From an uncultured virus (IMG/VR IMGVR_UViG_3300035136_000035) (Duplodnaviria; Heunggongvirae; Uroviricota; Caudoviricetes): a stretch of 64,000 nucleotides of DNA. A program made the translations under genes and the position numbers. Under the pieces are notes generated by a model, which was not told the origin of the DNA, ran no database searches, and saw only the letters and a program-made list of their open reading frames with translations. Below are positions 479 to 58,419 of this stretch, piece after piece (within the stretch, counting starts at the first letter, position 1; the number at the start of each line of letters is the position of its first letter). The stretch is from the IMG/VR virus record IMGVR_UViG_3300035136_000035. The stretch is one strand, 5' to 3'.

Positions 479-531
479 TTCTAACACTAAATAAACCACA
501 TTAAAACGATGGTTTATTATTTACGTTAGGC
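479..531 (+). mobile_element. attC-like recombination hairpin
   Basis: TTCTAAC...GTTAGGC enclosing imperfect inverted repeat TAAATAAACCA/TGGTTTATTATTTA. Confidence 0.8.
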
Positions 532-891: not shown

Positions 892-913
892 CCCAATATA
901 AATTTTAAAAGAT

Positions 914-1005
914 GCCTAACATGCGGTAAAAGTAAGCCGCAGAAAGGCTTGTGAATAATTTGAGTAGTCTACAAAGCGGCCTACTCTTACCGCTGTCCGT
1001 TATTC
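914..1005 (+). mobile_element. attC-like recombination hairpin
   Basis: GCCTAAC-atGCGGTAAAAGTAAGCCGC...GCGGCCTACTCTTACCGC-tgtcc-GTTA; a copy with identical arms lies inverted at 57462-57543. Confidence 0.85.
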
Positions 1006-1308
1006 ATCACCCCCTAAACTTTCGTTAAGTGAATCAAATTTATATGCAAATGTTAAGGAATCCAATTTCATTTGTCGAATTTCGAGTAATACATGAAACG
1101 AATCAAATTGAAATTTGGATTGTTCTATTTCATTAGAATTAATTATTCTTAACATTTCCTTATAAAGACTATCTGAAGCTTTGTTTATATCAACAATTAA
1201 ATCATAAGGTTTATAAAATTTATAAAGCATTTTTCCTTGATAAATATTCCTCTCGATAGAAACTATCACGAGAACAAGTAACATGCAAATTATAATATTT
1301 TTTTTCAT
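1000..1308 (-). CDS. hypothetical protein with N-terminal hydrophobic anchor
   Basis: 102-aa ORF; its stop codon is the TAA of the attC core. Confidence 0.75.
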   Translation of the reverse strand: MKKNIIICMLLVLVIVSIERNIYQGKMLYKFYKPYDLIVDINKASDSLYKEMLRIINSNEIEQSKFQFDSFHVLLEIRQMKLDSLTFAYKFDSLNESLGGDE

Positions 1309-1347
1309 AGTGAAAAATTTTTAATTGGTTATATATACACGTTAGTG
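1309..1347 (+). mobile_element. attI-like terminal half-site of cassette array 2
   Basis: AGTGAAAAATTTTTAATTGGTTATATATACAC-GTTAGTG; near-identical to 2249-2286. Confidence 0.7.
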
Positions 1348-1357
1348 GCAATACAAG

Positions 1358-1618
1358 TTACCACATTACTTTAACTGTTCTAAATGAATCTTGTAACATT
1401 TTATTACTTATGTACGAGTGTATTTTAGATTGTATTCTATCCACTTCGGCTTTGTTTTTAAATCTATCAAGTATTACTGTTATTGATTGGATACTGTCGT
1501 CAAAATACACATCAGAATCCTTCGGGCATAATGCTCTGATATTATCATAAAAATTATTACTGCCACTAACACTATGTAAAGTGCATGGCTGTTCTGTTTT
1601 TAAATCTTTTGTACTCAT
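1358..1618 (-). CDS. hypothetical cassette protein with N-terminus encoded inside the attC loop
   Basis: ORF crosses the core at 1564-1570 (TLHSVSGS); cassette ends GTTAGTGGCA and TGCCACTAAC are complementary. Confidence 0.75.
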   Translation of the reverse strand: MSTKDLKTEQPCTLHSVSGSNNFYDNIRALCPKDSDVYFDDSIQSITVILDRFKNKAEVDRIQSKIHSYISNKMLQDSFRTVKVMW

Positions 1619-1694
1619 ATCTAAAGTTATTTAAGTTTTGAAACTATGTAGCTTTGCTCAAGGCAGCCACGACACCTTACATTCACCGTTATGC
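1564..1694 (+). mobile_element. attC-like recombination hairpin (long loop)
   Basis: CACTAAC-actATGTAAAGTGCATGGCTG...CAGCCACGACACCTTACAT-tcacc-GTTATGC. Confidence 0.8.
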
Positions 1695-2123
1695 CCCATT
1701 GCTATATAAGTTATATAAGGCAATAACAGTTTCATATCCGGGGCTTTTAATCTTTCCAGTTTCTAATTGACTTAGGTAAGCATTTGAAATGCCCGTCTGT
1801 TTTTCAACTTCTCGGAGTGTAAGTCCCTTATCTTTTCTCATTTTTTTGAAATCTAATTCACGCAACGATGGCATAATAATATGTATAGGTAATTCTGCAT
1901 TATTTTTTACTACTTCCTGCGCATATTCTTCCATTGCTGCCAGAACATTTTCTTCTAATTTAAATTCTTTACAAAGATTTGCAATTGTTTCCCAAAAAAT
2001 AGTATGATATTTAGTATATTCTGGAATATCGCAATTTAAAGGCATTTTTTTTATTAATTTAAAAGCATTTTCCCTCACATAACACATTGGAAAATGACTG
2101 CAATTAAAACATGTTCTTTCCAT
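1689..2123 (-). CDS. XRE-family HTH protein; cassette-borne HTH fused to an upstream Cys-rich N-terminus
   Basis: KKMRKDKGLTLREVEKQTGISNAYLSQLETGKIKSP is a classical XRE HTH; HTH part bounded by GTTATGCC (1688) and GGCATAAT (1870-1877). Confidence 0.85.
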   Translation of the reverse strand: MERTCFNCSHFPMCYVRENAFKLIKKMPLNCDIPEYTKYHTIFWETIANLCKEFKLEENVLAAMEEYAQEVVKNNAELPIHIIMPSLRELDFKKMRKDKGLTLREVEKQTGISNAYLSQLETGKIKSPGYETVIALYNLYSNGA

Positions 2124-2248: not shown

Positions 2249-2286
2249 AGTAAATATTTTTAATTGGTTATATATACACGTTAGCA
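2249..2286 (+). mobile_element. attI-like terminal half-site of cassette locus 3
   Basis: AGTAAATATTTTTAATTGGTTATATATACAC-GTTAGCA. Confidence 0.7.
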
Positions 2287-2292
2287 AACATG

Positions 2293-2562
2293 TTAAAGAT
2301 ACCCGATATCTTTTACAGTTGCAAAAAACATATCAGTAGGATTGTATTTATAATACAGCTCTACCACTTCAAATCTCATTATTTTCCCAGACTCCATTTT
2401 ATCACGAAATTCGTCGCCAATTTTAACCTTTGGATTTTTAATGAATCCATATAAACTTAGATTGTCATAATCTCTCCATTGGATTGAATTTCCCCATCCA
2501 TTGTGTTCCCAAATATTAAAAACACGTTTGTTAACATCAGGTACATTAATATCTATTTTCAT
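2293..2562 (-). CDS. hypothetical cassette protein
   Basis: Ends GTTAGCAAACATG (2280) and CACGTTTGTTAAC (2523-2535) are 11/13 complementary; ORF reads through the core (VPDVNKR). Confidence 0.75.
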   Translation of the reverse strand: MKIDINVPDVNKRVFNIWEHNGWGNSIQWRDYDNLSLYGFIKNPKVKIGDEFRDKMESGKIMRFEVVELYYKYNPTDMFFATVKDIGYL

Positions 2563-2574
2563 TATACAGTTATT

Positions 2575-2784
2575 TTATTGTTCAAATTCTTTTTGGATGA
2601 ATAAATCAATAGCTTCTTCACTTGCATATCCTCTGAATTCATCCATTAAATAATTATAATATTTATTAAGTAATATTTTTGAATTTTCTTTTAATAAATC
2701 ACTTAATAAATTAATAATATCATTTTTTGTGTAAATATTCTGACATAACCTATCAGCATATTCTTTTATTAAATCTTTCATCAT
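2575..2784 (-). CDS. hypothetical protein
   Basis: Closely packed ORF in the leftward operon. Confidence 0.65.
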   Translation of the reverse strand: MMKDLIKEYADRLCQNIYTKNDIINLLSDLLKENSKILLNKYYNYLMDEFRGYASEEAIDLFIQKEFEQ

Positions 2785-4509: not shown

Positions 4510-5189
4510 AATAGTGTATTTTAAATGATTAATTAATAATAGCTTTACATTTTGTTTGTGTTATTGAACAATTTTCATTCCACACACATTGATAAAGACA
4601 AATTTGATTATCTAATAATTTTTTTTCTACAAGATCACATTTTGAATAATCGTATTTTCTGATTTTTGTTCTCATACTTTATATTTTAAGTTAATATTTC
4701 AATCTAATACATAGTAACTTTTTTGGGTAATATTCTTACTACACCATTTAACCAAATTACATTATTTATAATATATATACTATATACTAAGTATATTAAT
4801 ATATATAAGAATAAATAAAGTATTAATGATTACAGAGGTCAATTTCGCCCACTTGGGTAATGGATTTAATGTTTGAATTAATGAATTTAAAATATTACCC
4901 CCAGGTTCAGAAGTTTCACCGAGAGCCTGAATTTCATTCAAACATAAATAAAACATATCCTCATTAGTCTCCTTTTTTGTTTCAACCTCGATATAATCAG
5001 GTAGCGCAGTATAGGAAGAAAGAACTGCTATGTTAGGGCTAAACATTCCTACAAATGAATAAAGGAAGGTACTAACATAAGCAGTCCTTTTAAAATTAAA
5101 TATGTATTTTGAAATCATTTGTATAATGTTTAGCTGATTCAAAAGTACATATTATTTTTTAATTTCAAACAAAATACAATATTAAATTT

Positions 5190-5260
5190 TAATTGGCTTC
5201 ATTAAACAGCCTAATAAAAGGCTGTCTACTCTGAATTTTCAGGCTTGTAACTGTCAATTA
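5190..5260 (-). ncRNA. twister self-cleaving ribozyme, type P3 permutation
   Basis: Minus strand: TAATTG-A-CAG TTACAAGC CTG-AAAA-TTCA-GAGTAG-ACAGCCT tttatt AGGCTGT-TTAA-TGAA-GC-CAATTA, matching P3/P4/P2/P1 with the UUAC/GUA and GC/GC pseudoknots. Confidence 0.85.
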
Positions 5261-5532
5261 AGATTTGTTAAAATATATTCTCCAGATTGAATTTTACTTT
5301 CAGTTTCTTTTTTAGTTTCACACAAAAACTGGTTTCTATATTTACCAGTTGTTCTTGAATAATCCCAGTAAGTTTTATCTAATTGTACTTTACCCTTGTT
5401 AGGTTTGAATGCAATTACTGACTTATAGGACTGAAAATATGCACCTTCATTTGTAATAATAATAAACTGATTTTTTACTGCTTCGCCAGTTTTATCACTG
5501 ATCATTTGTGTTACTTTTACATTTGTTTTCAT
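5254..5532 (-). CDS. small early-region phage protein
   Basis: 92-aa ORF with FQSYKSVIA and WDYSRTTGKYRNQFL motifs typical of early phage proteins. Confidence 0.75.
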   Translation of the reverse strand: MKTNVKVTQMISDKTGEAVKNQFIIITNEGAYFQSYKSVIAFKPNKGKVQLDKTYWDYSRTTGKYRNQFLCETKKETESKIQSGEYILTNLN

Positions 5533-7824: not shown

Positions 7825-8565
7825 ATGAAACTAGTTTATATTATAAACTTGGTAGTACTCAGTTCATTACGTTATTTACTTCTTTGATTCAAAGTTAAAA
7901 AAATATTTCAATAATTTCCATAATTATTTATTGTGAAACGCTTTTTATTGATTTACAGGTAATTAATTAAATTAAAAAAGACTTATAATTAATATTATGT
8001 TAAATAGTATTAATATTTCACAATAAAAACGCTTTATACAGGATTGTTTTATAGTGCAGAAAATCAGGGGTAAATAAATTGAAATACAGGAATAACAAGG
8101 GGGACGGGGTCGCAATTTCGATTTTGGGAAATTGGATGCACCCCCTGTTATATATACACTGAGTACCATAAAATGGACACTAAAAAAAGTATAATAATAA
8201 TCGGGGGAAATGTATCAGTAACATATATTATATAATTTATATATCATATTAACTTTGGAGGGGGTATATTTGGACGAAAAAGATATTTTGGCATGGTGTA
8301 TTCATTTGGCAAAAAAAGATTAAAATAAGGGGTATTTCATATAGTATTAATTAAGGCATAAAAAAAAGAGTAATATTTCACAGGAAATAGATAAAAAGAT
8401 GTAACAAAAGGTATGATTTCACACGGGAAAAACAAAAAATAAAATTTGAGTAAAAAGTTTTGTATTTATTGTTATTGTTGTTTTAGATGGATTTTATTTA
8501 ATTCACAAGGAAAAATTCACAAGGAATATAATTTTAAAAATGTTGCAAAATCCGTGAATTTTATA

Positions 8566-8573
8566 TAAGTTTG
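8566..8573 (+). promoter_or_regulatory. Bacteroidota -7 promoter element
   Basis: TAAGTTTG upstream of 8602. Confidence 0.6.
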
Positions 8574-8601
8574 CAGCATAAATAAGAAAAATATGTGAAA
8601 A

Positions 8602-9111
8602 ATGAGAAAAATAGAATTATTTATAAAAGAGAGAAGGATAAAGATAAAAGATATAGAGGAAGAATTAGGAATTCCAAGAAGGAGTATTCAGATGACAAAA
8701 GGGAGGGGCATTCCCGATAAATATATAAGTTTAGTTACTGAATTATTAATATTGAAATATGGTTATGTTGATGATTGTTCATTATCAGAAGTAGATATTC
8801 CTATAGGAAAACCTGAAAAGGAAATAAAAATAAATTACAGGTGGAATAAGAATTTTATACCTAAGTATACGGATGGAATAATTCGGTATCAAGATCCTGA
8901 AAATGGGTTATGGAGGAGATTATGGGAGTATCAGAGTTATGTAGAAAAAAGCAAAGATGAAAATGGTAAAGAAATAAAAACGAGGAAAATAAGGAAAGAA
9001 TTTTTACCAGAGACAGGAGAAATATTAAAAGATAAGATAGGGGAATATTATATAGCCAGGAATGGTATAAAGGTATATAGTTTTAAAGGGGATTTAGGAA
9101 AAATAAATTAG
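8602..9111 (+). CDS. hypothetical protein with possible N-terminal HTH
   Basis: IKIKDIEEELGIPRRSI is HTH-like. Confidence 0.6.
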   Translation: MRKIELFIKERRIKIKDIEEELGIPRRSIQMTKGRGIPDKYISLVTELLILKYGYVDDCSLSEVDIPIGKPEKEIKINYRWNKNFIPKYTDGIIRYQDPENGLWRRLWEYQSYVEKSKDENGKEIKTRKIRKEFLPETGEILKDKIGEYYIARNGIKVYSFKGDLGKIN

Positions 9112-9192
9112 TCATGGATTTAGAAATTAAAAAAAGCGAAAGAAGTTCAAAATATTATATAAATTAATAAAATCAATAAATTATAAAAAGTT

Positions 9193-9345
9193 ATGAGAAA
9201 AAACAGGCCAATAAATTCTAAAACATGTTTGACATGTGGTAAAAAATTCAATCCTAATTCAGCACATCATAAATATTGTAGTGATGAATGCAGGCCAAGT
9301 AAGCATGATTATTATATTAATTGGTTAATAAAAACAGCGATATGA
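9193..9345 (+). CDS. small zinc-finger protein (50 aa, not in ORF track)
   Basis: CLTCGKKF...KYCSDEC. Confidence 0.65.
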   Translation: MRKNRPINSKTCLTCGKKFNPNSAHHKYCSDECRPSKHDYYINWLIKTAI

Positions 9346-9521
9346 AAATAATAAAAGAATTATTAATATTTTTTATAATTTTCTTATTTATATCTTTAAT
9401 ATTTATTACAGAATTTTGGGATATGATGGGTTCTATTTGGAATAAGATATTATTTATAATATTTTTATTATGTGCAACAATGATGATATATTTTGGAATT
9501 TTTAAATACGATGATTTATGA
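9342..9521 (+). CDS. small two-TM membrane protein
   Basis: Two hydrophobic stretches; ATGA overlap with the upstream ORF. Confidence 0.55.
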   Translation: MKIIKELLIFFIIFLFISLIFITEFWDMMGSIWNKILFIIFLLCATMMIYFGIFKYDDL

Positions 9522-10143
9522 CAAACTGGGGTAAAGTAGAATTAATACAGCTATACGAGAAGATCGTAAGACTGAAACTAGGAGAATTATAAAACCTCAA
9601 CCAATTTTTGATAGAAATTATATGGGGAATCGTAAAATTAAGATTAATAAAAATCATTATATATCTATCAATTATATTACAAAATCACCATATGGAAAAC
9701 CAGGAAATTATTTATGGGTTCGTGAAACTTGGTCTACTGAAAGAAAATATCCTCTAGCAATAAATTCACCTAATAGAGAAGCAATAAATTATATCTATAA
9801 AGCTGATAAACTAGAGCATATTTCAAAATTAATGAAATGGAAATCTTCAATATACATGCCTAAATCAGCTTGTAGATTGATTCTCAAGATTGAAGATTTA
9901 GGAGTTGAAAGAATTCAGGATATTACGGAAGAAAGCGCGATTAATGAAGGAATATTATCATCTTCATTTGATGTTGGTGAATATGAAGAAGTTGGTTATT
10001 ACATTTATGGATCAAAAAATGATTGGGATGTAAATCCTATTAATTCTTTTCAATCCTTATATATTTCAATAAATGGTCAAAAATCTTGGGATAAAAATAT
10101 TTTTGTTTGGAGAATTAAATTTTCAAAATATATTCAAATGTGA
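9518..10143 (+). pseudogene. ASCH/PUA-like phage protein with apparent frameshift near 9550
   Basis: AIREDRKTETRRIIKPQP is in frame upstream of ATG 9622 but behind a TAA at 9532; LWVRETW, WKSSIYMP, VERIQDITEESAINEG and SWDKNIFVW family motifs. Confidence 0.6.
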
Positions 10144-10373
10144 AACTAAAATACGAAACAGTTCATTTCAAGAAAATCAAAAAAAGGAATATTCATGATC
10201 AATATAATGTATTTGAAAATACATTTAATATTCAAATTGGTTTAATAATTTGGAGTGATTATTCTAAAAAATATGGTTATTTATCAGTAATGAATAATTG
10301 GCATTGCAATGAATTACCAGAGATTATTGAATTTTTAAAACAATTGAATAATGAAAATACTAATACTGGTTAA
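10140..10373 (+). CDS. hypothetical protein
   Basis: Packed ORF. Confidence 0.55.
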   Translation: MKLKYETVHFKKIKKRNIHDQYNVFENTFNIQIGLIIWSDYSKKYGYLSVMNNWHCNELPEIIEFLKQLNNENTNTG

Positions 10374-10381
10374 AATATTGT

Positions 10382-10765
10382 GTGATGGAAAAAGAGACGA
10401 AGCCACAAAAAAGCACTGATACCCAAATGGGTTATGATACGGTGTTAGCCACAGTTTTTAGGGGTGGCAATGCTGGAATAGAATTTGATTACAAATGGTT
10501 TTTCAGATATTTAGATTATTTGCGAATTGGGTCGAAAAAATTACTGACAAAACTAAGGCTTAGAGATAAACAAAGTTGTAAATATTGTGGACGAGACCAG
10601 CATGTAGTGTGGAGTTGTAAAAATGAAGATTGGTTGAAACTACCAGAGCGGTGGCACAATACTGCTTTATGTTTGGAATGTTTTATTGCACTATATCCTG
10701 ATAATATGAACAAAGCTGATATAAAAATACTTGGTTACGATTGTGGGATGGCAAATTGTGGTTAA
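10382..10765 (+). CDS. Cys-rich (CxxC) hypothetical cassette protein
   Basis: CKYC...CLEC; cassette ends GTTAGCCACAGTTT (10444) and AAATTGTGGTTAAC (to 10766); stop codon lies in the core. Confidence 0.75.
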   Translation: MMEKETKPQKSTDTQMGYDTVLATVFRGGNAGIEFDYKWFFRYLDYLRIGSKKLLTKLRLRDKQSCKYCGRDQHVVWSCKNEDWLKLPERWHNTALCLECFIALYPDNMNKADIKILGYDCGMANCG

Positions 10766-10798
10766 CAATATGTATAACCAATTAAAATTTTTTCATTA
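10760..10798 (-). mobile_element. attI-like terminal half-site of cassette locus 4
   Basis: TAAC-AATATGTATAACCAATTAAAATTTTTTCATTA then ATG; same family as 1309 and 2249. Confidence 0.65.
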
Positions 10799-10827
10799 AT
10801 GAAAATACTAATACCGATTGAAATAAA

Positions 10828-11298
10828 ATGAATCTTGAACAAGAAATAATAAATTATATTCCTGAATTAAATAAATATTCAAAGTATCTCACTTCGTATT
10901 ATCCAAATGATTTGGTCCAAGATACTCTTGAAAAAGCATTAAGAAAAAAAAATGAATATAATGATCAGGGAAAATTGATAAAATGGCTTATTGTTATTAT
11001 GAAAAACACTCTTATTGATAGAGAAAAGTACAAAAAAGAATTTTATCCAATATTTGACTATTTTGATGAATTTGAAAATATCAAATCTTTGAAAATAGAT
11101 AGAAGAAAATTACGAAATGTGATATTTAATAGTAAAAGAAAGATTGTTGAATCTATTTATTTAAAATCATTTTTTGAACTTGAATACAAAGAAATATCAG
11201 TATTTCTTGACAAAAATATAGGTAAAGTACGACGTAACGTACATGAATTTAGAACATATATGAATAAAAACTTTAAAATGGAGGATTTTATATTATGA
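10828..11298 (+). CDS. ECF-type sigma-70 factor
   Basis: Region 2 DLVQDTLEKALR...LIKWLIVIMKNTLID; region 4 LEYKEISVFLDKNIGKVRRNVH. Confidence 0.8.
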   Translation: MNLEQEIINYIPELNKYSKYLTSYYPNDLVQDTLEKALRKKNEYNDQGKLIKWLIVIMKNTLIDREKYKKEFYPIFDYFDEFENIKSLKIDRRKLRNVIFNSKRKIVESIYLKSFFELEYKEISVFLDKNIGKVRRNVHEFRTYMNKNFKMEDFIL

Positions 11299-11422
11299 AT
11301 TTATTAACTGACATATTAGCATTTATTTTAGCTATAATAATTATGTTTATTAGTTGTTTTATTAGTTTTTTATTAGGCAGATTTTTAGCTAAATTTTTTA
11401 AAAAAATAGAAAAATAAAAATC

Positions 11423-12301
11423 ATGAAAAAACTTTTGAATTTTATGTTAGCATCTTTGTTATTAACAGGATGCACAAGTCAAAAAGATTGCACAGAATAT
11501 AAAACACAAATTGAAGCATGTAAAACAGATTTAATTCAATCAAAAAATCAAATTGAAATATTAGAAACGGATAATATTAAATTGATCAAATCTGTTGATG
11601 ATCTAAAAAAAGAAGTAAATATACTTGTTAACGATCTTAATTTATGTGAAGAAATATCCGGTAATTATACTGAAACTATAAAAAAATTATATGATAGTAT
11701 CTTAGGATTAAATTCACAAATCGAAAATCAAAAAGAATTGTTAATATATTATTTGGATCGTGTTGATAAAGCCTTATTTTTTATCGAAGATACTTTTTCA
11801 ATTGGAGATGAAAAATTCTTTGTTATTAATAGAGGAATAGATATAGATACTATTAAAATTTATCATTCAGAATCTATATACTGGATTGTTAATTACTTAT
11901 TCAAAAACGATACAATTACTAGGTATAAAAATGATTTTATTAATTTACAGGAAACAGAAGGTCATGTTGTGCTTATACTTGATGCTGAGGGGACATTTTG
12001 TCAAGGATTCTATCCTATATTAGCTGTAAATGTAAATGATACATTATATTGCAGAACTATTATAAATCACGAATCACCTATCTTAGTTCATATATTAAGG
12101 TCATATAATGATATTGATAATATTTCTCTTGAATTTATTAACGATGCTGCTGATTCAACATGTGATAGAAATGTAATAATAAATAGTGTTATATTAAACA
12201 GGATGGAAATGGATTCTATTGAACTTATTTCGCCTGCTAAAATCGTAAATGATAAAATACGATTGAATCACTCTGGGGCTAAAATTATTATTACACCATG
12301 A
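11423..12301 (+). CDS. lipoprotein with coiled coil and possible C-terminal carbohydrate-binding domain
   Basis: Lipobox LLLTGC; heptad region; FINDA...DRNVIINSV motif. Confidence 0.65.
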   Translation: MKKLLNFMLASLLLTGCTSQKDCTEYKTQIEACKTDLIQSKNQIEILETDNIKLIKSVDDLKKEVNILVNDLNLCEEISGNYTETIKKLYDSILGLNSQIENQKELLIYYLDRVDKALFFIEDTFSIGDEKFFVINRGIDIDTIKIYHSESIYWIVNYLFKNDTITRYKNDFINLQETEGHVVLILDAEGTFCQGFYPILAVNVNDTLYCRTIINHESPILVHILRSYNDIDNISLEFINDAADSTCDRNVIINSVILNRMEMDSIELISPAKIVNDKIRLNHSGAKIIITP

Positions 12302-12440
12302 GGGAATTATTAGCACGATGGTTAAATCATTATCGCAGAGGACGTGAATATGCTATAATACAGAATCTTATAATAGTCAGTATTTTTATCGAACAGTTTA
12401 TTGCTAAAAAAATTGTCAATAAATTTAATGTATTTGGATA

Positions 12441-12746
12441 ATGGAAATAGGTAGAAAATTAATTCACGGAAGTAAAAGAAAATATACTTTTGAATATGAT
12501 AAAGGAATATTTGTCATTACCTACAAACATCTTGTAAATCTTGAAAGAATGAAAAACATTGATGATATTACTGATATAAATATTCCACTTCCGATTAGAT
12601 CATATAGTGTTGTTAAATATGCTGTATTATTTTTAGGAAAAGATGGTAAAATGAAATTTTTATATAATCCTAAGGATTATTCATTAATAAAAGATATATC
12701 TAAAGAGTTTTACGAATTTATAACTGAAAATTATGACAAAATATGA
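12441..12746 (+). CDS. hypothetical protein
   Basis: ORF track. Confidence 0.6.
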   Translation: MEIGRKLIHGSKRKYTFEYDKGIFVITYKHLVNLERMKNIDDITDINIPLPIRSYSVVKYAVLFLGKDGKMKFLYNPKDYSLIKDISKEFYEFITENYDKI

Positions 12747-12861
12747 CAATGCTTGTTTATGAAACAAGAGAAACAGGATTAATAAAAGATTATTGGATTA
12801 AAGAAAATAAATTTATTCAACAAGAAATAGAATATAAAATTGAAAAAATAATTAATTTATT

Positions 12862-13176
12862 ATGAATGAAATGAAAAAAGAACAAACAGAATTATTAGAC
12901 TTTACGGTAAATCCAACTTTTCTTGAATTAATGAAGCATCCAATTAGCAGTATAAAAATCTCTAGCTACTTAAGTTTTGATATGGAACGAAATGGTAGAA
13001 TGCTTCACTGTACAATTTATAGCGGTAAAGACGGGCAAATAAACATAAGTGATATAAATAAAAATGGAATGCATGGAAATACAATACTTAGAGATTTTTG
13101 CCAAACACCAGAAGACTTTAAAAAAATGCTCGAAAAGTTGGATGATTTATTAACTAGAATACCAGTACAGGAGTAA
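12862..13176 (+). CDS. hypothetical protein (probable relic cassette)
   Basis: Followed by AATTTTTATTGTGCCTAACG, identical to the tail of the MazG cassette. Confidence 0.7.
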   Translation: MNEMKKEQTELLDFTVNPTFLELMKHPISSIKISSYLSFDMERNGRMLHCTIYSGKDGQINISDINKNGMHGNTILRDFCQTPEDFKKMLEKLDDLLTRIPVQE

Positions 13177-13186
13177 TTTTTATTGT

Positions 13187-13391
13187 GCCTAACGGCTGGC
13201 GGTATGCGGTCGTTATTTTTTACGGATTTGAAACACTTAATAAAATATAAAGATGAAAGACATTGAAAATTGGCTAAAAAACAGATACAGCGAACAATTG
13301 GTACACGCTAATAGTGCGTTTATTAGTAGCATTATATATGATTACTGCACGGAAGTATTAAAAAATAATGCCGTATTACCGCTTGTTAGCA
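13187..13391 (-). mobile_element. attC-like hairpin with protein-coding loop
   Basis: GCCTAAC-ggctgGCGGTATGCGGTCGTTATTTTTTA...TAAAAAATAATGCCGTATTACCGC-tt-GTTAGCA (as read on +). Confidence 0.8.
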
Positions 13392-13546
13392 AACGTTTTG
13401 AAATAGAGTTTAAATACGTTGACAGAACGGATGCTACATTACATAAAGATATTGTTGAAGCAGAAGATAGCGGACAAGCCATAAGTAAATTGTTTCAAAA
13501 ATACGGTTATAATATTGAGTGGTGGACAGTTAAAAATGTTTACTAA
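13253..13546 (+). CDS. hypothetical cassette protein with attC-encoded N-terminus
   Basis: Crosses the core at KNNAVLPLVSKR; ends GTTAGCAAACGTTTT and AAAATGTTTACTAAC; stop codon lies in the core. Confidence 0.75.
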   Translation: MKDIENWLKNRYSEQLVHANSAFISSIIYDYCTEVLKNNAVLPLVSKRFEIEFKYVDRTDATLHKDIVEAEDSGQAISKLFQKYGYNIEWWTVKNVY

Positions 13547-13588
13547 CATACATATAACGAAAATTTACAAACGCAAACAATATCCAAT

Positions 13589-13771
13589 ATGATAGAAAAT
13601 TATACAGAAAATGTAGAATGCAAACACTGCGGATCTTCAATGACATTTTGGTGGGATGGAGGAAAAATAAAAGGACAATTTTGGAATGCTTATAAATGTG
13701 CAGATTGTGGAAAAATAACCTCAGATGAACCGGATATTGATTTAATGTTTACTAAAAAATATAATAGATAA
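13589..13771 (+). CDS. small zinc-ribbon protein
   Basis: CKHC...CADC. Confidence 0.7.
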   Translation: MIENYTENVECKHCGSSMTFWWDGGKIKGQFWNAYKCADCGKITSDEPDIDLMFTKKYNR

Positions 13772-14064
13772 TGAAAATAAGAAATTATCATTTTGAATCA
13801 TCAAGTAAAGAACCAGTAACAATAACATGGTCAAGGCATCATGCAAGTTTATTAGCTGCATTTGGATATTATATTAAAAAAGATGGTGATTATTTTGATG
13901 TATATAAAGAAATAATTTATTATAATCAAAAAAAGAAAGAAAATGCTTACAGGGTGCATAAAAAAGATATAGTAAGTTTTCTTCAAAGAAAAGGTGCTAA
14001 ATTAAGGCTTGGAAATACAGATAAAAAAACAAGAAATTTAAGTTTCAGTAATTTTAACAATTAA
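13771..14064 (+). CDS. hypothetical protein
   Basis: Packed ORF. Confidence 0.6.
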   Translation: MKIRNYHFESSSKEPVTITWSRHHASLLAAFGYYIKKDGDYFDVYKEIIYYNQKKKENAYRVHKKDIVSFLQRKGAKLRLGNTDKKTRNLSFSNFNN

Positions 14065-14067
14065 AAT

Positions 14068-14304
14068 ATGGAAATAAATTTATCCGAATATAGACTTAAA
14101 TGGTTGATGAAACAGCCTTTAAATACTTGGATAGATATAAAGGTTGTTCCATCATTAATAGAATTTTATGGTATTATAGATGCTTTCGGAAGTAAAGTAT
14201 TGGATGAAATAGGATATGAAATGAAATTAAACAAATATTGTTCACATTTTATGATCAAGAAAAAAGAAAAATGTAATAAATTAATAGAATTTAAAATAGC
14301 ATGA
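14068..14304 (+). CDS. hypothetical protein
   Basis: Packed ORF. Confidence 0.6.
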   Translation: MEINLSEYRLKWLMKQPLNTWIDIKVVPSLIEFYGIIDAFGSKVLDEIGYEMKLNKYCSHFMIKKKEKCNKLIEFKIA

Positions 14305-14828
14305 TGACAGCATATGATATAAATAAAATACTTTATACTAATTTTTTTAATAATTATGATTATCAACTTTTTAATTCATATGTTTTTAAATGGGAATCTG
14401 ATTTTTTTGCTATTTCTAAATCTGGATATGTTCATGAAGTTGAGATAAAAATTAGTAAATCAGATTTTAAAAATGATTTTAAAAAAACAATATATCTTGA
14501 AAATATATTAAAACATGATTATATTCAAGCAAAAAAAGAATTTACACCGAATAAATTCTGGTTTGCATGTCCTAAAGAATTAATTTATACTGATGATATT
14601 CCATATTCTAATTATGGATTAATATGGATAGATAAAAATCATTGTAATATTATTAAATATCCAAAATTTTTACATAAAATAAAACATCTTGATAATAATA
14701 AATTTACAAAAATACTTTTAAATAAATTTTATAATAATAATATTGATCTTAGATATTCTTTAAATTTAGAAGAATATGATATTAAATATAGACAAAGACG
14801 TATTGATGAATATTTTTTTTATAACTAA
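14301..14828 (+). CDS. PD-(D/E)xK nuclease-like protein (MmcB-like)
   Basis: ESDFFAISKSGYVHEVEIKISKSDFKNDF and PNKFWFACP. Confidence 0.7.
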   Translation: MMTAYDINKILYTNFFNNYDYQLFNSYVFKWESDFFAISKSGYVHEVEIKISKSDFKNDFKKTIYLENILKHDYIQAKKEFTPNKFWFACPKELIYTDDIPYSNYGLIWIDKNHCNIIKYPKFLHKIKHLDNNKFTKILLNKFYNNNIDLRYSLNLEEYDIKYRQRRIDEYFFYN

Positions 14829-15056
14829 ACAATTAGTTGTATATTTGTCATGTGAAAGAATTTTTACACATAGAGACAAATAAAGGAATAACCAATTTTG
14901 AAATATTCCGTATGGGCATTTTAAGGCATCGTGTATCGATGAAAAAGATAGAAATGATAAATAGTACCACTTTATCATTAAAATTGATTATACGGCTTAA
15001 AAATGGATTTAACGATTATAAAGAAATTGAACATCTTATATTTTTAAATTAAAATT

Positions 15057-15248
15057 ATGGAAAATAAAACAAGAAAAATTTTTGAAAATAGAGGTATTTT
15101 ATCAGCTAGAAAATACGATTATTTATCTAAAGAATGGAAATTAAAAATTGATAATATAATATCAGAATTTAGAGGATTAACATACCATGAAGTTGATAAT
15201 ATAATTTCTATATTATCAGAAGAAATTAAATCAAAAGCTATATTATAA
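15057..15248 (+). CDS. hypothetical protein
   Basis: ORF track. Confidence 0.55.
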   Translation: MENKTRKIFENRGILSARKYDYLSKEWKLKIDNIISEFRGLTYHEVDNIISILSEEIKSKAIL

Positions 15249-15258
15249 ATTTGAATTA

Positions 15259-15618
15259 ATGCAGAAAAAGAAAATTAAAATTCCAATATATTTTGGAGAT
15301 TTAATTATTATTCAAGTAGAAAATTCAGAAGAAATAGAAAAAATAAAAAAACAGTATAATATTGAATTACCTAATTCATTTAACGCATTTACATTTAATA
15401 TTTATAAAAAAAAATATACAAGATATATCATGGTTTTTGAAGAAAATTGTAATCCAAGAATGATAGCACATGAATCATTACATGTTGTCAGGTATATTTT
15501 TGAAGATAGAAAAATGTGGTTTGAAACAAATAATAATGATGAAGCACAATGTTATTTACTTGGATGGATAGTTGGAGAATGTCATAAATTTTTAAATATT
15601 AAATCCATGCAACATTAA
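15259..15618 (+). CDS. HExxH zincin-like phage protein
   Basis: IAHESLH...DEAQCYL. Confidence 0.65.
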   Translation: MQKKKIKIPIYFGDLIIIQVENSEEIEKIKKQYNIELPNSFNAFTFNIYKKKYTRYIMVFEENCNPRMIAHESLHVVRYIFEDRKMWFETNNNDEAQCYLLGWIVGECHKFLNIKSMQH

Positions 15619-15694
15619 TTTAGTTATTAACTAATATTGAATATTTGTCAAACATTTTTGACATGTTTATTTTTTTCATATTTTTAAAATTTTA

Positions 15695-15727
15695 CCCATC
15701 CTGTTGTGAAACACGATGGGGTTTTTT
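15695..15727 (+). terminator. intrinsic terminator
   Basis: CCCATC...GATGGG hairpin with GTGA loop followed by a T-run. Confidence 0.65.
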
Positions 15728-15742
15728 ATATTTGTAAAATAT

Positions 15743-15815
15743 TGCGAGATAGAACAGTGAGTAGTTCGCTAGTTTCATACGCTAGAGGTCGAGGGTGCAA
15801 ATCCCTCTCTCGCTA
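15743..15815 (+). tRNA. tRNA-Met(CAT), initiator-like, atypical
   Basis: Acceptor GCGAGA/TCTCGC with 1:72 mismatch; D stem GAAC/GTTC; anticodon arm CTAGT-TTCATAC-GCTAG; T arm GAGGG-TGCAAAT-CCCTC; no encoded CCA. Confidence 0.85.
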
Positions 15816-15865
15816 CTAAAATAAGAAAGGAGGTAACCATGACGTAAAATCAATAAATAAATGTC

Positions 15866-16015
15866 ATGGCTACAAAAACAAAAACCGGAAAGGGAGGATC
15901 TAAAAAACACGGACGTAATAAACGTGGAATAGATCAAGCTACTTCTTTGTATTCAAAAGGTAAAATTAGTTTTGAACAGTATTCAAAGATGAAAGGAATT
16001 AAGAGGACAAAATAA
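15866..16015 (+). CDS. small very basic protein (49 aa, not in ORF track)
   Basis: MATKTKTGKGGSKKHGRNKR...; lies between the tRNA and a terminator. Confidence 0.65.
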   Translation: MATKTKTGKGGSKKHGRNKRGIDQATSLYSKGKISFEQYSKMKGIKRTK

Positions 16016-54260: not shown

Positions 54261-54388
54261 ATATTACGTAAAATATAAGATTAGTAAGGGATTAAAAGCA
54301 GTAGCCTACCTTATTACTCCGAACTAAATTAAAGGCACAATTGCACAAACCAGCACAATACCCTTATTAATTTTATATGGTGTTATGC
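54261..54388 (-). mobile_element. attC-like hairpin (one core degenerate)
   Basis: ATATTAC-gtaaaa-TATAAGATTAGTAAGGG...CCCTTATTAATTTTATA-tggt-GTTATGC (as read on +). Confidence 0.7.
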
Positions 54389-54403
54389 GCTGCCGATTTT
54401 ATT

Positions 54404-54775
54404 ATGAAAAGAGAATATTATATACGAAAGAAATGCACGGAAGAAGGATGTAATGAGGAAGGGATTTATAGTTACAAAACACAAAGAGAGTACCGTGAGG
54501 CATTAAAGAAAAACAAACCTTACATATGCAACAGGCACACCCGACCGAATGAAGTACTGAGCGAAGGCAATTTAAAAACAGAAGTTGAATTGAAATGTGT
54601 AGGTAAAAGCTACAGTACAGAAAGATGTAATTTTTGGCAACGTGCGGAGCATTTCGGAACTGACAAATTAGACAGCGGATTTCAATATGGAAACGGATAT
54701 AAGGCATGGGCTAAAGACTTTCCAGAAGGAACAATACTTAAAGTAACAGCAGAAATTATATTACCAGATGCGTAG
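54404..54775 (+). CDS. Cys/His-containing hypothetical cassette protein inserted in the lysis module
   Basis: Ends GTTATGCGC (54382) and GCGCATAAA (54779-54787); start at MKREYY or 54377. Confidence 0.7.
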   Translation: MKREYYIRKKCTEEGCNEEGIYSYKTQREYREALKKNKPYICNRHTRPNEVLSEGNLKTEVELKCVGKSYSTERCNFWQRAEHFGTDKLDSGFQYGNGYKAWAKDFPEGTILKVTAEIILPDA

Positions 54776-54906
54776 GTTGCGCATAAAAAAGAAAATATAA
54801 AATTAAATGAAATCTCGAATAAAATAATTAAAATAAATTAAATTGTATTAGTAAAATTTCATAATTTTGATTTGATAATATATTATTAATTTAAAAATTA
54901 AATTTT

Positions 54907-56830: not shown

Positions 56831-57175
56831 ATGAAAGAATTAATATTAGGGAATTACAAAATAGAAAGTGATAAATTTGGATTTATTATTTCAGAAAAGA
56901 AAATAAATAAAGGTCAATCTAAAAACAAAAAAAGTAATCCTGATAATATTGGTAAGGAATATTTTACTTATCATACTTATCATTCAAATATTGAAAGTGT
57001 AGTAACTAATCTATTAGAAAGAGGGGCAAGAGAATATATAGACGATTTAAAAAAAATGTTTTCTTTTTATGTGAAGATTAAAAATTCATTTCATAATTTT
57101 TTGGAATTAGAATTACAACGAAACATAACGTCAAAAGATAAAGCAAGTGTTTATAAAAGCACTAAAGTAACATAG
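56831..57175 (+). CDS. hypothetical protein whose C-terminus runs into an attC-like arm
   Basis: The last ~16 codons lie inside 57123-57201. Confidence 0.65.
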   Translation: MKELILGNYKIESDKFGFIISEKKINKGQSKNKKSNPDNIGKEYFTYHTYHSNIESVVTNLLERGAREYIDDLKKMFSFYVKIKNSFHNFLELELQRNITSKDKASVYKSTKVT

Positions 57176-57201
57176 CGCATTAATTTTATACATTGTTATA
57201 C
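57123..57201 (-). mobile_element. attC-like hairpin
   Basis: ACATAAC-gtcaaaagATAAA...TTTTATACATT-GTTATAC; same right arm as at 57747-57760. Confidence 0.6.
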
Positions 57202-57213
57202 GCTTTTAATTAG

Positions 57214-57454: not shown

Positions 57455-57546
57455 ACACAAAGGACAGCGGTAAGAGTAGGCCGCTTTGTAGACTGCTCAA
57501 ATTTAGTAATAGCTTTCATGCGGCTTACTTTTACCGCATGTTATAA
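57455..57546 (-). mobile_element. attC-like hairpin, sister of 914-1005
   Basis: GGACAGCGGTAAGAGTAGGCCGC...GCGGCTTACTTTTACCGCAT-GTTA; arms identical, loop diverged. Confidence 0.85.
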
Positions 57547-57558
57547 ATTGTAAAAATT

Positions 57559-57714
57559 ATGGACGAATTTGAAGTACAATGTAATGAGTGCGATTGGCAA
57601 GGTTATGCACTTGATTTAGTAAGCAAAACAGCAGATTTAGACGACAAAGATTTTAAATACTGTCCTAATTGCGGGTCGGACGATATAGATGATATTGATT
57701 ATGAAGATTATTAA
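57559..57714 (+). CDS. acidic zinc-ribbon cassette protein (51 aa, not in ORF track)
   Basis: MDEFEVQCNECDWQG...YCPNCGSDDIDDIDYEDY. Confidence 0.75.
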   Translation: MDEFEVQCNECDWQGYALDLVSKTADLDDKDFKYCPNCGSDDIDDIDYEDY

Positions 57715-57764
57715 TAACGTTGAGTATAAAATTTCGTTTTAATGAATTTTATACATTGTTACCG
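57712..57764 (-). mobile_element. attC-like hairpin, sister of 479-531
   Basis: TAAC-gttgaG TATAAAATT tcgttttaatg AATTTTATAC att-GTTACCG; loop TCGTTTTAATG shared with 499-509 (minus). Confidence 0.8.
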
Positions 57765-57806
57765 TGTCGTTTTGTGCGGTGGTAGTGTATAGCAAAATAA
57801 ATAAAT

Positions 57807-58010
57807 ATGATTATAGATAATAGTAGATATTACGACACAGATGTACATTGTAGTACATGTGGAAAGGTTTACAGACCTTCTAAAGATGCAGATATTAAAG
57901 AAAAGCTTAATGTACCTCCATTAGTTGCAAATATTTTTTGCAGCAGAGAGTGTAAAGAGAAGTACGATGAATTTTTAGAACAAAACCGAGCGGTGGCAAA
58001 TGCACGGTAA
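57807..58010 (+). CDS. zinc-finger cassette protein
   Basis: CSTC...FCSREC; ends GTTACCGTG (57758) and CACGGTAAC (58003-58011) are perfectly complementary; stop codon lies in the core. Confidence 0.8.
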   Translation: MIIDNSRYYDTDVHCSTCGKVYRPSKDADIKEKLNVPPLVANIFCSRECKEKYDEFLEQNRAVANAR

Positions 58011-58234
58011 CGGACAGGTATATGAGCCGTGCGGATTAACCCACGGACAATCGAACGAGGTACATAGTAATAATTTTAAAATATTTTTTAGGGATGGAAA
58101 AATCTACAGAAACATTAGTAAAAATGATTGAATTAAATAATTCAATTAATCAGGTTAATAAAGAAAATGAAATGACAAAAAATAACGAAACTCCAGCAAC
58201 CGACAAGGCTATGCAATATGAGTCTGTGTTAGCA
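58005..58234 (-). mobile_element. long, degenerate or hybrid attC-like site with coding loop
   Basis: CGGTAAC-GGACAG... to ...CTGT-GTTAGCA; arms pair only partially. Confidence 0.5.
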
Positions 58235-58375
58235 AACGTTTTATCAAATACAGACCATTGGTTTGACTGCAATTTGAGAGCTTTGCTTGGCGCAGAAATA
58301 GCCCTTATTAAAAAGGGGAAAAAGAAACAGATTGACAGAAAAATGTTAGCAGACTGGATTACTAACCACCTTTAA
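58094..58375 (+). CDS. hypothetical cassette protein with attC-encoded N-terminus
   Basis: Crosses the core at MQYESVLANV; ends GTTAGCAAACGTTT and AAATGTTTGCTAAC. Confidence 0.7.
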   Translation: MEKSTETLVKMIELNNSINQVNKENEMTKNNETPATDKAMQYESVLANVLSNTDHWFDCNLRALLGAEIALIKKGKKKQIDRKMLADWITNHL

Positions 58376-58380
58376 ATGTT

Positions 58381-58419
58381 TGCTAACTTGTTTATATAAA
58401 CAATGAAAAATATTTCACT
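58381..58419 (-). mobile_element. attI-like terminal half-site of the four-cassette array
   Basis: 35 bp identical (inverted) to 116-150. Confidence 0.75.

Follow-up and report, generated by a model that had tools for sequence, protein, structure and literature searches.

The locus and its putative loop-borne start codon

The hairpin site at 13190–13388 lies in a window of 64,000 nucleotides, the whole stretch of viral DNA analysed here, and an open reading frame (ORF 13253) runs from its loop through the GTTA at its 3′ base (Table 1). The start codon, ATG 13253, stands 63 nt into the site. The leader, encoded within the site, ends in GTT, read as valine, the junction being CTT GTT AGC (L-V-S), and the body that follows is devoid of methionine. 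The stop codon, TAA 13544–13546, is the TAA of the TAAC at 13544–13547. The arm duplex of the site amounts to −14.4 kcal/mol on the gene strand versus −11.3 on the opposite strand, and the closing stem of 13186–13392 is present in both the MFE and the centroid folds. The two ends of the body are complementary as well, with 13 Watson–Crick pairs and one G:T over the 15 positions of 13385–13399 and 13533–13547.

ORF 13253 has just two database relatives, P0002 and P0003, which match its residues 1–46 at 87% and 80% identity. Their C-termini differ from its own, and the switch, seen at the protein level, comes right after V-S, which corresponds to GTT AGC. DNA coding for these relatives was found neither among viral contigs, nor among metagenome contigs with a profile, nor with a back-translated pattern.

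A similar arrangement is found on the minus strand at 1567..1691, where ORF 1618 begins. The gene strand of this site folds at −17.2 kcal/mol versus −12.3 for the opposite strand, and 5 of 200 shuffles fold equally well. ORF 2123..1689 ends on the TAA contained in the TAAC of this site. The junction of ORF 1618 reads S-V-S-G, the ORF stops shortly before the next TAAC, and its body ends, 1570..1558 and 1353..1341, form 12 Watson–Crick pairs and one G:T over 13 positions. The single database relative, P0078, shares 19 of the first 20 residues, followed by weak similarity for 14 more, and the leader clusters with one found in another phage locus (L197) on a different body. A switch of homology exactly at the junction had been put forward in the preliminary description as a way to check this arrangement; the relatives of both ORFs indeed keep the leader and then diverge.

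Table 1. Coordinates of the hairpin sites and associated ORFs in the window
Feature	Coordinates	Strand	Remarks
Long-form hairpin site	13190..13388	+	TAAC 13190–13193, GC-rich 5′ arm, 150-nt loop, 3′ arm, GTTA 13385–13388
97-codon ORF	13253..13546	+	Leader codons 1–45 (13253–13387) inside the site; body 13388–13543
Left end of the ORF 13253 cassette body (GTTA + 11 nt)	13385..13399	+	Complementary to 13533–13547
Right end of the ORF 13253 cassette body (11 nt + TAAC), holds the stop codon	13533..13547	+	
Long-form hairpin site, 125 nt, ATG 1618 in loop	1567..1691	−	−17.2 kcal/mol, z −2.25
86-codon ORF	1358..1618	−	17-codon leader in loop and 3′ arm, then V-S-G-S, then body
86-nt hairpin site, TAAC..GTTAGGCA	917..1002	−	−21.3 kcal/mol, z −3.96
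Second copy of hairpin 917..1002, without the 5′ TAAC	57459..57545	+	z −4.13
Short-form site, 47 nt, conserved loop TCGTTTTAATG	482..528	−	Covariance model R1 59.8 bits, E 9e-10 (scored at 476–534; site belonged to the alignment behind R1)
Short-form site, 47 nt	57715..57761	+	R1 63.5 bits (scored at 57709–57767; site belonged to the alignment behind R1)
TAAC...GTTA hairpin, 58 nt	8093..8150	strand-switch region	−13.9 / −12.7 kcal/mol on the two strands, z −3.64
ORF, first ~20 codons before GTTA bracket	10382..10766	+	10444–10457 pairs with 10753–10766; stop is the TAA of a TAAC
ORF, 45 codons before GTTA bracket	58094..58387	+	58228–58241 pairs with 58374–58387
ORF, 9 codons before GTTA bracket	2280..2562	−	2535..2521 pairs with 2294..2280
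ORF starting ATG GTG TTA	54377..54786	+	GTTATGCGC (54382–54390) pairs with GCGCATAA (54779–54786)

Other starts and stops in the window

Seven ORFs had been listed beforehand as starting within or upstream of a hairpin and reading through GTT. This holds for ORFs 13253 and 1618, whose hairpins are supported, and not for the other five. Four of these (10382, 58094, 2562 and 54377) do have a GTTA core, the 5–11 nt after which pair with the end of their own gene, without a convincing hairpin: folding gave none around 10382 (10371–10450, z −0.16) or 54377 (54320–54390, z +0.72), 2575..2529 is unfolded around start 2562, and no closing stem from TAAC 58008 appears in the fold of 58004–58236. For start 2123, neither a TAAC/GTTA site nor a hairpin exists at the claimed junction. 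The five stop codons ascribed to a TAAC (1000, 1689, 10765, 13546 and 58010) are all confirmed. Five body-end brackets of 13–15 nt were delineated in the window, with 12–13 Watson–Crick and one or two G:T pairs per 13–15 positions.

The body of ORF 10382 is a zinc-ribbon with 72 relatives. Its leader is present in one of 13 aligned body relatives, most of which start near the junction, and the GTG at the junction could be a real start there. ORF 58094 has no relative in the protein collection, and the right end of ORF 54377 is degenerate (TAAA). A tblastn search of seven window ORFs against all fetched loci returned self-matches only. The likeness of arm-encoded peptides reported between ORF 2123 (EVVKNNAELP) and ORF 13253 (EVLKNNAVLP) is real, weak, and spans the junction (36% identity over 47 residues, E 4e-4). 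A domain switch between these two ORFs was considered and rejected, as the weak similarity crosses the junction and ORF 2123 is without a site.

Hairpin sites of the window

The window has a G+C content of about 26%, with minus-strand genes up to ~8.2 kb and plus-strand genes beyond. A Pfam scan of its 103 ORFs matched the crAss muzzle protein, an intein-bearing DnaB and small accessory genes; the source phage is crAss-like. The G+C-rich islands correspond to the positions of TAAC...GTTA palindromes. Every TAAC/GTTA pair 30–260 nt apart was scored for arm duplex energy on both strands, and the outliers are 1002..917 (−) at −21.3, 1691..1567 (−) at −17.2 and 13190–13388 (+) at −14.4 kcal/mol, followed by 8093–8150 and the 47-nt sites 528..482 and 57715–57761. 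Over both strands, four pairs reach −14 kcal/mol or lower and three −17 or lower; the corresponding numbers in 30 dinucleotide shuffles of the window are 0.1 on average and zero. Folding supports the hairpins at 1695..1563, 1006..913, 57455–57548 and 8154..8089 (z −2.3 to −4.1). No Rfam family matched at the hairpins.

The TAAC of hairpin 917..1002 (−) supplies the stop codon of ORF 1308..1000, and the MazG-like gene that follows has its start codon downstream of the site. This hairpin is 87% identical to its second copy (917–1002 versus 57459–57543). GTTACCGTG of the short-form site 57715..57761 pairs with CACGGTAAC at 58003–58011. A truncated short-form site was also observed at 57162–57204 (+), of which only the 3′ arm and GTTA are kept, this arm being nearly identical to that of 57715–57761. 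The hairpin at 8093–8150 stands where the gene strands diverge, within a 65-codon minus-strand ORF.

A widespread hairpin family

An exact 23-mer of hairpin 917–1002 is also found in a 76-kb phage contig (G001), which has no DNA similarity to positions 8400–16000 of the window. Nine sites, most of them ~125 nt long, follow one another on the same strand of this contig. Each GTTA is followed there by 5 nt complementary to the last 5 nt ahead of the next TAAC, and an ATG from which the frame reads through GTTA is present in three of the loops.

The short form, 47–48 nt in length, was searched with the pattern TAAC, stem, TCGTTTYAATG, stem, GTTA. It occurs in more than 130 IMG/VR stretches among the matches listed, including contigs of 256–362 kb, and in more than 122 stretches of bacterial genome contigs. 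Within 80 fetched bacterial loci, 91 pattern matches were counted, repeats from overlapping loci included, of which 34 have a real stem; most of these 34 come from contigs assigned to Bacteroidota. The 15-mer TTATTGTGCCTAACG was found in 115 viral stretches, about the chance number by a rough estimate from collection size, and only one locus (L017) was used. In an alignment of 84 short sites, 92.5% of the stem cells are paired, and both partners vary in 11 of the 12 upper-stem pairs (292 cells). Covariation reaches a score of 0.566, versus 0.152 for shuffled data (none of 500 reaching the observed value) and 0.08–0.12 with slid pairs; TAAC, GTTA and the 11-nt loop were fixed by the search pattern, and their invariance carries no information. 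These stems show that the hairpin fold is under selection.

The short-form covariance model R1 misses long-form sites. It gives 12.6 bits on the focal long site, from the left arm only, and this site was placed in the family because of its base, its arm pattern and hairpin 917–1002. A set of 234 sites (224 unique) was called at our own threshold of −11 kcal/mol in the window, G001, the Polaribacter phage locus L251 and viral loci, the latter chosen for holding a short site. Loop sizes range from 11 to ~170 nt.

The gene strand folds better at 182 of the 213 sites with a clear gene strand (8 equal, 23 worse). Mismatches in short-site stems are more often G:T (54) than A:C (20), and the sense strand is the more stable one in 59 of 84. 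Better folding of the gene strand fits a role in mRNA equally well, and since the gene strand is the better folder, a reading in which the hairpins act in mRNA is a serious rival to one based on recombination. They would then be 5′ stabilisers, processing sites, terminators or presenters of translation starts in regulatory cassettes, with the shared leaders as a by-product and the shuffling due to ordinary or short-homology recombination at conserved motifs, as has been proposed, in the part of that literature available, for the promoter-early/stem-loop cassettes (PeSLs) of T4-type phages. The excess of G:T over A:C, the start codons in open A-rich loops and the conserved leader- or promoter-like sequence after short sites, with an ATG ~34 nt downstream, agree with such a role. 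On the whole of the evidence, including that given below, we rate it as unlikely.

In loci L121–L200, conserved leader families were observed between GTTA and ATG after short sites, for example ...GTACGGATTATTAAC...AAACTTAAATAGAATG; a weaker version of this sequence follows window sites 482 and 13190. Another observation concerns the chromosome of Polaribacter glomeratus, which holds at ~281–290 kb (L259–L261) a row of unrelated genes separated by a related hairpin subfamily. These genes encode SnoaL-like, DUF711, fatty-acid hydroxylase, Fic/DOC with HTH, and PhzF-fragment products. Unlike in the phages, the loop motif and the genes are there on opposite strands. The P. glomeratus genome yielded no integron integrase above cut-off.

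Cassette signature and homology borders

Among 142 pairs of consecutive sites, 103 have the 8 nt following GTTA matched to the 8 nt preceding the next TAAC by six or more base pairs; shuffling the partners lowers this number to 31 on average, with a maximum of 43. Across one and the same site, pairing between the flanks does not exceed chance (2.9 of 8, versus 2.8 for shuffled partners). The start of a unit is thus complementary to its own end and not to the flank across the site, as in a cassette array. Such pairing of body ends across whole genes argues against a role confined to mRNA, all the more so as, with an ATG upstream of the left end, the pairing would enclose the body only and exclude the start.

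Homology borders were found at the same motifs. A 480-nt block common to two loci (L150 and L133) extends exactly from TAAC to the next TAAC, and the borders of the long hairpins common to L138 and L175 are exactly TAAC and GTTA. Downstream homology of at least 50 nt is seen in 198 HSPs, 87 of which start at TAAC, and upstream homology in only 8 HSPs; part of this asymmetry is due to the conserved leader- or promoter-like stretch after short sites. That HSPs with downstream homology most often begin at TAAC would suit the mRNA reading. Against it stands the size of the motifs at which homology stops, 4 nt being too little for homologous exchange.

In 325 of 361 pairs of near-identical hairpins, neither flank is common to both members (61 of 69 long, 264 of 292 short); the downstream flank is shared in 35 pairs and the upstream flank in one. 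Since the hairpin is co-inherited far more often with the downstream than with the upstream gene, the start codon usually comes with the unit of its gene and not from a neighbouring one. The sites had been described as dual-coding and perhaps able to swap N-terminal leaders or domains. The coding overlap and the re-pairing of leaders and bodies (see below) support this in part. With neither flank shared in most pairs of near-identical hairpins, the crossover may lie on either side. A crossover within the conserved loop was rejected, because it would break the arm pairing that the short-site stems retain.

The many near-identical hairpins with unrelated flanks on both sides also recall selfish palindromic repeats of the MITE or REP type, sitting before genes whose real starts would be downstream, the read-through ORFs being annotation artefacts. 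A related repeat is indeed dispersed in Flavobacteriaceae chromosomes, and most body relatives of ORF 10382, which has a GTG at its junction, have no leader. Against recent copying, the stems covary over a wide sequence range, and the pairing of body ends with each other is likewise at odds with selfish repeats. This explanation is considered quite improbable, also in view of the reading-frame data that follow.

Leaders on interchangeable bodies

Among the 152 unique long sites, 53 have an in-site ATG with an ORF running at least 40 codons beyond GTTA. These loop-start ORFs have a median leader of 21 codons and a median body of 64 codons. Of the 99 remaining long sites, 87 have a downstream ATG, at a median distance of 34 nt. 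Two phases of read-through, GTT as a Val codon or GTG-TTA, had been noted in the window, and they hold family-wide: out of 55 loop-start ORFs, 43 use GTT as a codon, 9 read xxG-TTA and 3 xGT-TAx, two duplicates from overlapping loci being included in this total. Four related leaders measure 85, 82, 76 and 67 nt from ATG to GTTA, differences that are all multiples of 3. Such a phase bias and such in-frame length changes speak against annotation artefacts. Starting at the next in-frame ATG, a median of 17.5 codons into the body, would moreover cost the bodies a median 36% of their length, and seven bodies have no in-frame ATG at all. We infer that the loop ATGs are real starts.

Comparison of 54 loop-start proteins from related phage loci yielded 41 pairs with similar leaders, none of which has similar bodies, and 10 pairs with similar bodies, none of which has similar leaders. 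One cluster of 12 leaders is carried on 12 different bodies. As judged from these sequences, leaders and bodies appear clearly to have been re-paired at GTTA. Leader codon differences are synonymous versus non-synonymous in a ratio of 17 to 29 in one group and 5 to 28 in another; the leader residues are only weakly constrained. One leader group keeps a helix-like (heptad-like) spacing of hydrophobic residues, a conservation hardly expected from selfish repeats.

A recombinase next to some arrays

A tyrosine recombinase domain (PF00589) is present in four of five large site-holding contigs, with one gene each. In three mapped arrays (L174, L125 and L129), the gene lies one or two genes past the last array site and is co-oriented with the array, a position that the mRNA reading does not account for. 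In 8 of 70 contigs, a homologue of the recombinase (41–67% identity) lies no more than 4 kb from a short site. The array-end enzyme has 265–268 residues with intact catalytic motifs. The families that it resembles most are XerA-type and XerC/D, none of them reaching the cut-off, and it aligns end to end with archaeal XerA structures. The L174 enzyme matches IntI4 over residues 10–177 and 260–313 only, ~48 residues being missing between 177 and 260, and the array-end recombinases score 151–159 bits against TIGR02249, versus a cut-off of 265. The end-to-end alignment with XerA and the partial one with IntI4 thus designate the array-end recombinase as Xer-like, not IntI.

The scan of the 103 window ORFs revealed no tyrosine recombinase (PF00589), and none was found in G001, which is 92% complete. 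This double absence fits the mRNA reading; the related chromosomal array of P. glomeratus, with hairpins oriented opposite to the genes, does not. Being scattered and without a recombinase, the window sites may be relics, or may depend on an enzyme acting in trans. Neither excision products nor empty sites nor presence/absence variants were encountered in the sequences analysed, which counts against an active exchange of units.

Comparison with integron attC sites

The likeness to integron cassettes is extensive. Here too, imperfect palindromes with an AAC/GTT base and a variable terminal loop fold from single strands, each unit of an array carries a single small gene and begins with a sequence complementary to its own site-proximal end, stop codons lie in TAAC, and a tyrosine recombinase of the Xer/IntI branch adjoins some arrays. 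Some copies even read GCCTAAC/GTTAGGC; at the focal site, the left box GCCTAAC fits the attC consensus and the right box GTTAGCA does not. It could thus be proposed that the sites are genuine attC, forming integrase-less clusters (CALINs) serviced by host integron integrases as in bacterial integrons.

Several features make this highly improbable. The R-box consensus is at chance level, RYYYAAC fitting 21 and GTTRRRY 30 of 224 sites, with ~28 expected by chance beyond the fixed TAAC/GTTA. Unlike attC, the short form has a conserved 11-nt loop, and loops of the family carry start codons and leaders. An attC site stands at the 3′ end of its cassette and recombines through the strand complementary to the gene; here the hairpin is 5′ of its gene (35 versus 1 shared flanks) and the gene strand is the better folder (182 of 213). 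Nor was an IntI with its specific extra segment found beside an attI and an array: the associated recombinase is without the IntI insert (159 bits versus the TIGR02249 cut-off of 265), is of 265–268 residues, and is co-oriented at the downstream end of the array; no attI was identified. No integrase scoring above cut-off was found in P. glomeratus, whose chromosome carries a related array. The sites are attC-like in shape, not canonical attC.

A member of the family has in fact been assayed already. CALINs have been reported in virulent phages (Qi et al. 2023, PMC9892861), and the CALIN described there in Polaribacter phage P12002L holds two short-form sites, which we find together with a methyltransferase gene bracketed by GTTAGGCAC...GTGCCTAAC; all sites in the stretch of this phage analysed are of the short form. 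The P12002L_attC1 oligonucleotide of the supplement (PMC9892861) is L251 4883–4943, a short-form member, and attC2 of that study is the reverse strand of the sequence after GTGCCTAAC. HattCI thus called the same family attC (PMC9892861), which favours the integron interpretation. According to the part of the report available, P12002L_attC1 was predicted by HattCI only and not by INFERNAL, and is the sole one of six phage sites without verified IntI1 recombinants (Qi et al. 2023, PMC9892861). IntI1 is not the cognate enzyme of the hairpin family. The attC label given in the preliminary description is not borne out, as the consensus failed, no IntI was found and one member was negative in the IntI1 assay, as far as the available part of that report goes (Qi et al. 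2023).

A probable hairpin-bounded gene-cassette system

Taken together, the focal locus is probably a unit of a hairpin-bounded gene-cassette system widespread in Bacteroidota phages, integron-like in its working without being an integron. Its sites have TAAC and GTTA at their two ends and, in between, an imperfect covarying stem closed by a loop, which is either the conserved 11-nt TCGTTTTAATG or an insert of 60–170 nt. The body starts with GTTA and ~10 nt, which pair with the ~10 nt and TAAC at its own end; self-complementary body ends are what would be expected if a unit closes as a circle and re-enters at the base of a hairpin. In about one-third of the long sites, the loop carries an A-rich leader sequence, an ATG and 15–45 codons, the frame of which continues in a fixed phase across the 3′ arm and GTT (Val) and on into the body. 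Such fixed-phase read-through would result in a site-encoded N-terminal leader fused to an interchangeable body. The exchange of units may be the work of the array-end recombinase, or of a host enzyme, acting on the folded gene strand at the base of the hairpin.

A more specific proposal, offered tentatively and somewhat short of probable, is that of a dedicated exchange system of Bacteroidota phages, from crAss-like to jumbo, which would stand apart from integrons, would use a small Xer-like recombinase and gene-strand hairpins lying before the genes, would have sites that serve as expression heads as well, providing the start codon and a translated N-terminal leader, and would naturally produce in-frame fusions of leaders and bodies through site-specific recombination. 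If the loop starts are real, the recombination site is also the first exon-like module of a gene, and exchange at the site core would re-pair leaders and bodies with the frame intact. Integrons are not known to do so, and re-pairing of this kind has so far been an engineering idea only. The system would help explain the turnover of small accessory genes in phages of a dominant gut and marine bacterial phylum. The analysis yields defined sites and a candidate enzyme with which it can be put to the test.

Parallels exist in other systems. In T4, the internal proteins have a capsid-targeting leader, a short shared N-terminus on variable cargo. The sharing of a short N-terminal leader by variable proteins is alike here, and no evidence points to targeting by the leaders of the hairpin family. 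Acinetobacter plasmids have dif modules, in which gene modules lie between sites for Xer-type recombinases; unlike these 28-bp dif-like duplex sites, the sites described here are hairpins. PeSLs, which combine a sigma-70 early promoter with a stem-loop in T4-type myoviruses, a different phage group and host from those of the hairpin family, are considered to recombine via sequence homology, and are not known to have self-complementary gene ends or an associated recombinase, or to encode protein. They are cassettes with repeated modules of a hairpin and expression signals between small accessory genes, for which modular shuffling has been proposed, and they resemble the present family in these respects, as far as the available parts of the reports go (Arbiol et al. 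2010, PMC2839356; Comeau et al. 2014, PMC4122927). Synthetic attC sites have been placed in coding sequence (Nivina et al. 2020, PMC7439510). As in that work, a structure-specific recombination site lies within an ORF; unlike that engineered design, as described in the part of the report available (PMC7439510), the present arrangement occurs in nature, with a start codon provided by the site itself. The literature searched held no description of the system beyond the phage CALIN report (Qi et al. 2023, PMC9892861).

Other elements of the window

A third type of junction module was observed at 106–151, 1299–1344 and 2238–2283 (−) and at 10769–10813 and 58371–58415 (+). Its layout is a right-end TAAC, a conserved stretch of ~35 nt with a palindrome (TTGTTTATATAAACAA or a variant), AAAAATATTTCACT, then the ATG of the next gene. 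No GTTA partner goes with this module, which may be a promoter or an operator. Positions 1–150 and 1194–1343 are 97% identical, the 5′ part of ORF 1308..1000 being duplicated at the window edge, so that two copies of this small gene lie 1.2 kb apart. The DnaB-type helicase gene at 59369–61831 (+) is split by an intein with Hint and LAGLIDADG homing-endonuclease domains. Lastly, a type-P3 twister ribozyme is found at 5189–5261 (−), between two small ORFs of the early region, with 59.2 bits versus a gathering score of 39.9.
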